Below, piece by piece: positions 1 through 99 of a DNA stretch of 328 bases. The stretch is from Escherichia coli. Lineage in GTDB: Bacteria > Pseudomonadota > Gammaproteobacteria > Enterobacterales > Enterobacteriaceae. A program made the translations under genes and the position numbers. The first letter of the stretch is position 1, and each line of letters begins with the position of its first letter. Where the stretch lies: assembly GCF_003334335.1 (NCBI RefSeq), contig NZ_QOWQ01000220.1; one strand, written 5' to 3'. The notes below the pieces were generated by a model. The model searched no databases. It was not told the DNA's origin and was given only the letters and a program-made list of their open reading frames with translations.

Positions 1-99
1 GGTGAGCCTGTTGAGCATGTTGATGCTGGCAGAGTAATTCTGATGCCCCCCTCAGTGGCAAAAGACATGGTCAGGAGCGGAATGGCCGTTTATGCGTGA
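1..99 (+). CDS. 3' end of a phage head assembly / DNA-packaging accessory protein, lambda gpFI-like (5'-partial; the start lies upstream of the window)
   Basis: Frame 1 is open from the window edge to TGA at 97-99 and translates to GEPVEHVDAGRVILMPPSVAKDMVRSGMAVYA*. This aligns without gaps to my recollection of the lambda gpFI C-terminus (EPV..V..G.......VA..M...G.A), ending at the same distance from the stop. It sits immediately upstream of an FII homologue, as FI does in lambda (E-FI-FII-Z-U-V). Identity is modest, so the assignment leans on synteny. Confidence 0.55.
   Translation, partial: GEPVEHVDAGRVILMPPSVAKDMVRSGMAVYA
73..81 (+). promoter_or_regulatory. Shine-Dalgarno-like ribosome-binding site for the FII-like gene, embedded in the 3' end of the upstream CDS
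   Basis: AGGAGCGGA at 73-81 is purine-rich and complementary to the 16S rRNA 3' end. The AGGAG core (73-77) is 14 nt upstream of the ATG at 92, which is long, but the GGA at 79-81 gives a 10-nt spacing. Sequence-only call. Confidence 0.4.

Follow-up and report, generated by a model that had tools for sequence, protein, structure and literature searches.

Positions 92–99 of the window, by which we mean the whole 328-nucleotide stretch of Escherichia coli DNA analysed here, read ATGCGTGA and lie within the sequence ...GGAATGGCCGTTTATGCGTGATTTTGAG.... This octamer carries the start codon of one gene together with the stop codon that ends the gene before it, which raises the question of whether ribosomes that terminate on the first gene go on to translate the second, or whether the two coding sequences simply happen to meet in this manner.

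All features described here are on the plus strand. Frame 1, which carries the FI-like gene, is open from base 1, has the peptide tail ...VAKDMVRSGMAVYA and ends ...GEPVEHVDAGRVILMPPSVAKDMVRSGMAVYA with the stop codon TGA at 97–99. Frame 2, which carries the FII-like gene, is closed upstream by a TGA at 41–43, and the 16 codons that follow (CPPQWQKTWSGAEWPF) contain no ATG, GTG or TTG. The frame starts with the ATG at 92–94, continues with MRDFENSFDAAL... (residues RDFENSFDAALAGVDRTIVEVMG...) and stays open to the end of the window. The FII ATG is thus located five bases ahead of the FI stop codon, and, as frame 1 stops at 97–99 and frame 2 starts at 92–94, the two genes are co-directional, occupy different frames and have 8 nucleotides in common. 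The preliminary description had reported both this overlap and the lack of any other upstream in-frame start for FII, and a direct reading of the sequence agrees with it on both points. A second in-frame TGA at 103–105, two codons past the first (frame 1 reads ...YA*F*EF), is a back-up stop for the FI allele of the window. A stop codon in that frame and position is expected at about 3/64 of random gene starts; the overlap, however, is the boundary of two genes supported by homology and not a statistical pattern in need of a chance test.

The FI-like gene (1–99, frame 1, the last 32 codons and the TGA) is assigned to the DNA-packaging chaperone FI by PGAP, Pfam and PHROG. Its product matches the Pfam family PF14000 (Packaging_FI) over model positions 1–131 of 131 (E=1.3e-15) and PHROG 92 (‘DNA packaging chaperone FI’, E=1.4e-41); an NCBIfam profile search and a PDB sequence search gave no match for it. 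In the RefSeq annotation of NZ_AP022815.1, FI has the major capsid protein gene on one side and FII on the other. The FII-like gene (92–328, frame 2, codons 1–79 of 117) is assigned to the head-tail joining or head closure protein by PGAP and homology. Residues 1–117 of its product align with residues 1–117 of lambda gpFII (PDB 1k0h, E=3e-52), and the product also matches NCBIfam NF049848 (tail_join_FII, 53 bits against a cut-off of 25), Pfam PF05354 (Phage_attach, E=1e-18) and PHROG 82. Because this alignment with gpFII runs from end to end, the ATG at 92 is homologous in position to the start of lambda FII, and, on the strength of the alignment, ATG 92–94 is homologous to Met1 of gpFII. The FI-like and FII-like identities, originally proposed from the letters of the window and its open reading frames, are borne out by these matches; neither reading frame is open by chance, and both belong to real genes.

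The window is 100% identical to positions 1221912–1222239 of the E. coli JE86-ST05 chromosome (NZ_AP022815.1). In the stretch of this chromosome that we designate L001, RefSeq/PGAP annotates a gpFI coding sequence at 5731–6099, the end of which is window position 99, and a head-tail joining protein coding sequence at 6092–6445, the start of which is window position 92. The FII start and FI stop calls are confirmed as right for what is a very common prophage module, similar sequence being present in 1366 of 5426 complete E. coli genomes; O104:H4 and JE86 strains are among those with a copy 99.7–100% identical to it. Both genes sit within a contiguous, same-strand block of late genes, which begins with terminase, a W-like protein, portal, an S49 protease, a decoration protein and the major capsid protein, and continues with gpFI, the head-tail joining protein and the Z-, U-, V-, G-, T-, H-, M- and L-like tail genes. 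Overlaps are found at 8 of the 15 junctions of this 12-kb late-operon stretch (−17, −4, −11, −8, −4, −20, −4 and −1), so the FI/FII junction is typical of its operon. The locus belongs to a phage-21-like lambdoid prophage of E. coli and is the FI/FII junction of its late operon. The late operon of lambda is expressed as one transcript, and the window contains no promoter-like or terminator-like site. A search of the window against Rfam returned no family above threshold; a snoR442 match at 1–45, which scores 20.9 bits where the gathering score is 50, was set aside as a chance match.

Two minor observations concern FI itself. Its reading frame is open for 11 codons further upstream, where it has another ATG (MPPCFFHRELD-MATKEE..., about 5698–5730 of L001); PGAP and the phage records chose the MATKEE start, which has GGGAG at −11 to −7, and the longer, 408-nucleotide form was apparently used by the annotators of phage D2. 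The FI protein (5731–6096 of L001) also matches phrog_2353 ‘major head protein’ at profile positions 361–476 of 481, and phrog_15460 ‘terminase’ over its N-terminal 67 residues, which suggests that some phages have FI-like domains that are fused to capsid or terminase proteins or annotated under these names.

The preliminary description had proposed that the junction be compared with homologous prophages, and we did so with a set consisting of 80 IMG/VR loci encoding close FII relatives and of phage and E. coli records. The overlap is carried by all 86 related loci (22 distinct 120-mers). The 80 IMG/VR loci are not independent observations, as that sample is biased to FII proteins that share at least 95% identity with the query. 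The octamer is ATGCGTGA in 85 of the 86 loci and ATGCATGA in the remaining one, and the start and stop codons are kept in both. These loci span three or four types of FI C-terminal sequence, which end in ...GMAVYA (with two upstream variants), ...GTAEYA and ...GTAEHA; the corresponding FI alleles read ...VAKDMVRSGMAVYA (the window), ...DAKTHVDGGMAVYA (the phage 21 type), ...ATAMIQHGTAEYA and ...ATAMIQHGTAEHA upstream of the octamer. The mean column entropy is 0.57–0.65 bits upstream of the ATG, 0.03 bits in the octamer and 0.15 bits in the next 52 bases. Furthermore, the 8-nucleotide overlap is annotated in four more E. coli chromosomes sampled across the identity range. Judged by this set of junctions, the overlap is kept across the phage-21-like clade whatever the FI allele upstream.

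The FI side of the junction is mosaic. In BLAST comparisons, similarity between the window and other E. coli prophages sets in at position 10, 38, 50, 53, 79 or exactly 92, the last of these being the FII ATG, and FII stays 88–96% identical; mosaic breakpoints therefore cluster in the 3′ end of FI and at the gene boundary. In one IMG/VR locus (UViG_2645727717_000008), FI is cut short by a premature in-frame stop (...PVELT*RGMRVLV...), 27 codons ahead of the FI stop, and the junction is otherwise intact. This is a natural version of a premature stop in the upstream gene, and the locus is probably a decaying prophage.

Among the closest described relatives of the junction is that of the phage 21 head operon (GenBank M81255, a record of the 1990s), in which ORF1, the FI analogue (7599–7973), and gene 8, the FII analogue (from 7966), share the identical octamer ATGCGTGA in an 8-nucleotide overlap at 7966–7973. 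Phage 21 also resembles the window in its FI tail (GMAVYA), in its FII start (MRDF) and in a GGAA at −13 to −10, which is marked as a putative ribosome_binding_site (7953–7956) in M81255. It differs from the window in having another allele of the FI body (its aligned part shows about 73% nucleotide identity), in lacking AGGAG at −19 to −15 and in having two extra in-frame upstream ATGs in the FII frame. The overlap, already present in M81255 and in the RefSeq annotation, is not new; it is real, ordinary and already known, and nothing in it departs from known biology. The phage-21-like lineage has kept it stably, and it is of little importance beyond correct annotation.

Lambda (NC_001416; FI 7202–7600, FII 7612–7965) has homologous genes in the same order, and its FII protein is 70% identical to that of the window and equal in length. 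The start region of lambda FII, GTG-GCT-GAT (GTGGCTGA), contains an out-of-frame TGA, as does that of the window. Unlike in the window, the lambda FI stop codon, TAA, precedes the GTG start of FII by 11 nucleotides, and there is no overlap. N15, mEp237, HK225, phi80 and Gifsy-1 are lambda-like in this respect and have spacers of 10–11 nucleotides in place of the overlap; FII of N15 and phi80 starts with ATGGCTGA, in which the embedded TGA is unused. The number of residues from the Gly-x-Ala motif to the end of FI is equal in both groups (GMAVYA vs GLARMQ). It is therefore where FII starts, as counted from the FI stop, that sets the groups apart. In phage D2 (OM475427), as in the window, an 8-nucleotide overlap ends at the TGA embedded in FII codons 2–3. 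Unlike in the window, however, this junction joins a phage-21-type FI to the spacer and FII of lambda, and it has a GTG start and a strong Shine-Dalgarno (SD) sequence. Here FI crosses the lambda TAA in another frame, ends at the TGA contained in GTGGCTGA (about 650–702 of the D2 locus in our set) and thereby gains a novel tail, ...VDNNGRRCG.

The two kinds of junction also differ in their SD sequences. The preliminary description had placed a poorly spaced SD sequence upstream of FII. That holds for the window, in which AGGAG at 73–77 (−19 to −15) lies 14 nucleotides before the ATG. AGGAG is specific to the FI allele of the window and absent from the phage-21-type and AEYA/AEHA-type junctions, and only the GGAA at 79–82 (−13 to −10 from the FII start), a weak SD candidate, is conserved, which weakens the case for reinitiation. 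This GGAA belongs to GGAATGGC at 79–86 (consensus GGAAyGGC, −13 to −6), which is present in all overlap-type junctions and is the sole element common to them, the flanks being divergent. Columns −13 to −11 and −8 to −6 are invariant across the 22 distinct junction sequences. The same element encodes the Gly-x-Ala of the FI C-terminus, so that protein constraint and ribosome-binding-site constraint are inseparable in these sequences.

We expressed SD strength as the computed energy of the duplex with the 3′ end of 16S rRNA. Among junctions with the overlap, this energy is −7.0 kcal/mol in the window, where the duplex forms at −20 to −12, too far upstream, −4.9 kcal/mol in phage 21 and −4.1 kcal/mol in the AEYA/AEHA alleles. 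Among junctions with a spacer, it is −10.3 kcal/mol in lambda (the GGGAGG of its spacer), −10.8 kcal/mol in N15 and mEp237 and −9.4 kcal/mol in phi80, with the duplex at −12 to −3 in all four phages. The overlap types thus have weak or badly spaced SD sequences and the spacer types mostly strong and well-placed ones. Gifsy-1 departs from this pattern, as its spacer carries only a moderate SD sequence (−6.9 kcal/mol).

The association of a weak SD sequence with the overlap and of a strong one with the spacer fits translational coupling, and we lean towards the view that coupling contributes materially to FII translation. FI and FII would be carried on one late transcript, on which FII would have no strong, well-spaced SD sequence of its own, AGGAG being 14 nucleotides away and GGAA weak. 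For want of such a sequence, FII initiation would probably proceed largely via ribosomes that have just translated FI, and these would account for a substantial share of it. When such a ribosome terminates at the TGA, the FII AUG would be 5 nucleotides behind its A site, in or next to its footprint, and it is plausible that the ribosome reinitiates there; ribosomes on FI could also hold the FII initiation region unfolded. Lambda-type relatives would reach the same end by means of a 10–11-nucleotide spacer with a strong SD sequence. The FI/FII spacing of −8 falls in the range of about −8 to +10 nucleotides, which has been treated as predictive of termination-reinitiation (PMC10666635). The junction has the geometry of the ‘−8’ class of co-directional overlaps (NTGNNTGA), and among 2.66 million pairs of co-directional prokaryotic genes only the spacings −4 and −1 are commoner than −8 (PMC10666635; PMC12548453).

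Of the two forms of coupling, unfolding has no visible substrate in this junction, as the predicted folds of 52–141 and 1–200 are no stronger than those of shuffled sequence (z = +0.20 and +0.29, respectively). Comparison of the minimum free energies of these two segments with those of shuffles revealed no stable, conserved structure hiding the FII ribosome-binding site. A small hairpin, GAGCGG / CCGUUU (75–80/86–91), is predicted between AGGAG and the AUG. We rejected it as a regulatory structure: its stem sequence differs among FI alleles, and the fold is no better than those of shuffles.

The chief alternative to coupling, to which we give somewhat less than an even chance, is that the overlap is incidental and that FII initiation is mostly independent and weak. 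Any FI allele brought into that frame, unless it had already met a stop, would simply end at the TGA embedded in FII. Free 30S subunits would start FII mainly de novo on the weak signals GGAA (−13 to −10) and, in the FI allele of the window, AGGAG (−19 to −15), and the resulting low output would suit a protein needed in few copies per virion. All E. coli-phage FII genes examined begin with NTG-NNT-GAT and hence carry an out-of-frame TGA, including those of the spacer-type phages lambda, N15, mEp237, HK225 and phi80. As this TGA is present in FII codons 2–3 where FI stops earlier, it was not selected for FI termination. The D2 chimera, furthermore, made the same 8-nucleotide overlap by joining a phage-21-type FI to the lambda spacer, and, since it combines the overlap with the strong SD sequence of lambda, the overlap and a weak SD sequence need not co-occur. 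The mosaic breakpoints in the 3′ end of FI, some of them exactly at the FII ATG, fit a stop codon supplied by FII. That short overlaps originate when a stop codon is lost or replaced is an established model (PMC3887535). Considering (i) the embedded TGA of the spacer phages and (ii) the recombinant overlap of D2, the overlap could be incidental; such an overlap can arise, and perhaps persist, without selection for coupling.

The literature on coupled genes bears on both readings. Coupling is described as poorer with longer overlaps, its efficiency dropping as the overlap exceeds −4 (Tian and Salis, as cited in PMC12548453), which favours an incidental origin. The coupled pairs of the ‘−8’ class literature are enriched for subunits of heteromeric complexes (PMC10666635; PMC12548453), whereas no interaction between the products of FI and FII is known: FI has been linked to terminase A and the capsid protein E, and FII to W (PMC3224144). 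With no known FI-FII complex, the usual stoichiometry rationale for coupling is inapplicable here. On the other hand, overlaps of −8 stand out genome-wide by an enrichment well beyond that of other lengths, and this is usually taken as a sign of function (PMC10666635). The incidental reading also has to contend with the fact that a good SD sequence is consistently missing in the overlap types and strong in most spacer types, as would be expected if coupling compensates. Finally, a ribosome that terminates 5 nucleotides past an AUG could hardly avoid affecting initiation there.

If coupling does operate at the overlap, the two kinds of junction may be interchangeable modes of setting FII output relative to that of FI: a −8 overlap with almost no SD sequence and coupled translation, and an 11-nucleotide spacer with a strong SD sequence and independent initiation. 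Recombination at the boundary would then swap the mode together with the FI allele. We offer this extension tentatively and regard it as rather doubtful; phage D2 and the breakpoints at window positions 79–92 are the instances of boundary recombination to which it appeals. Were it true, the junctions would be a natural matched pair for measuring the share of the −8 overlap in E. coli reinitiation. The junctions with a −8 overlap and a weak SD sequence, those with a +11 spacer and a strong one, and D2, with the overlap and a strong SD sequence, form a comparison set of modest value for separating geometry from SD strength.

There would be no overlap to explain if the true FII start lay downstream, at a GTG or ATG such as that of Val15 or Met23, but this is very improbable. 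In-frame GTG or ATG codons are indeed present at 134–136, 149–151 and 158–160. Such a start is contradicted by the alignment of residues 1–117 with gpFII, the chain of which has 117 residues in 1k0h, 2kx4 and 8k37. The first codons, M-(R/A)-D-F-(E/Q/D)-N, are kept from the prophage of the window to lambda, N15 and phi80, and the position of ATG 92 was picked by PGAP as well as by those who annotated several phage records. We accordingly discarded other FII starts: upstream there is none in frame, and those downstream are ruled out by the end-to-end alignment.

The remaining alternative, an FI-FII fusion made by programmed +1 frameshifting, would have CCC-CCC-T at 46–52, on which tRNA-Pro can slip +1, and an FII frame open from position 44 on, yet it is extremely unlikely because the other FI alleles that share the overlap (the phage-21 and AEYA/AEHA types) lack the C run, and besides, folding of 52–141 and 1–200 revealed no stimulatory structure, lambda-type spacer junctions have stops in all frames, and no FI-FII fusion is known in lambda. 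The run of six C at 46–51 encodes Pro-Pro in FI and directly follows the TGA at 41–43 that opens the FII frame; its distribution among the FI alleles suggests that it is probably incidental.
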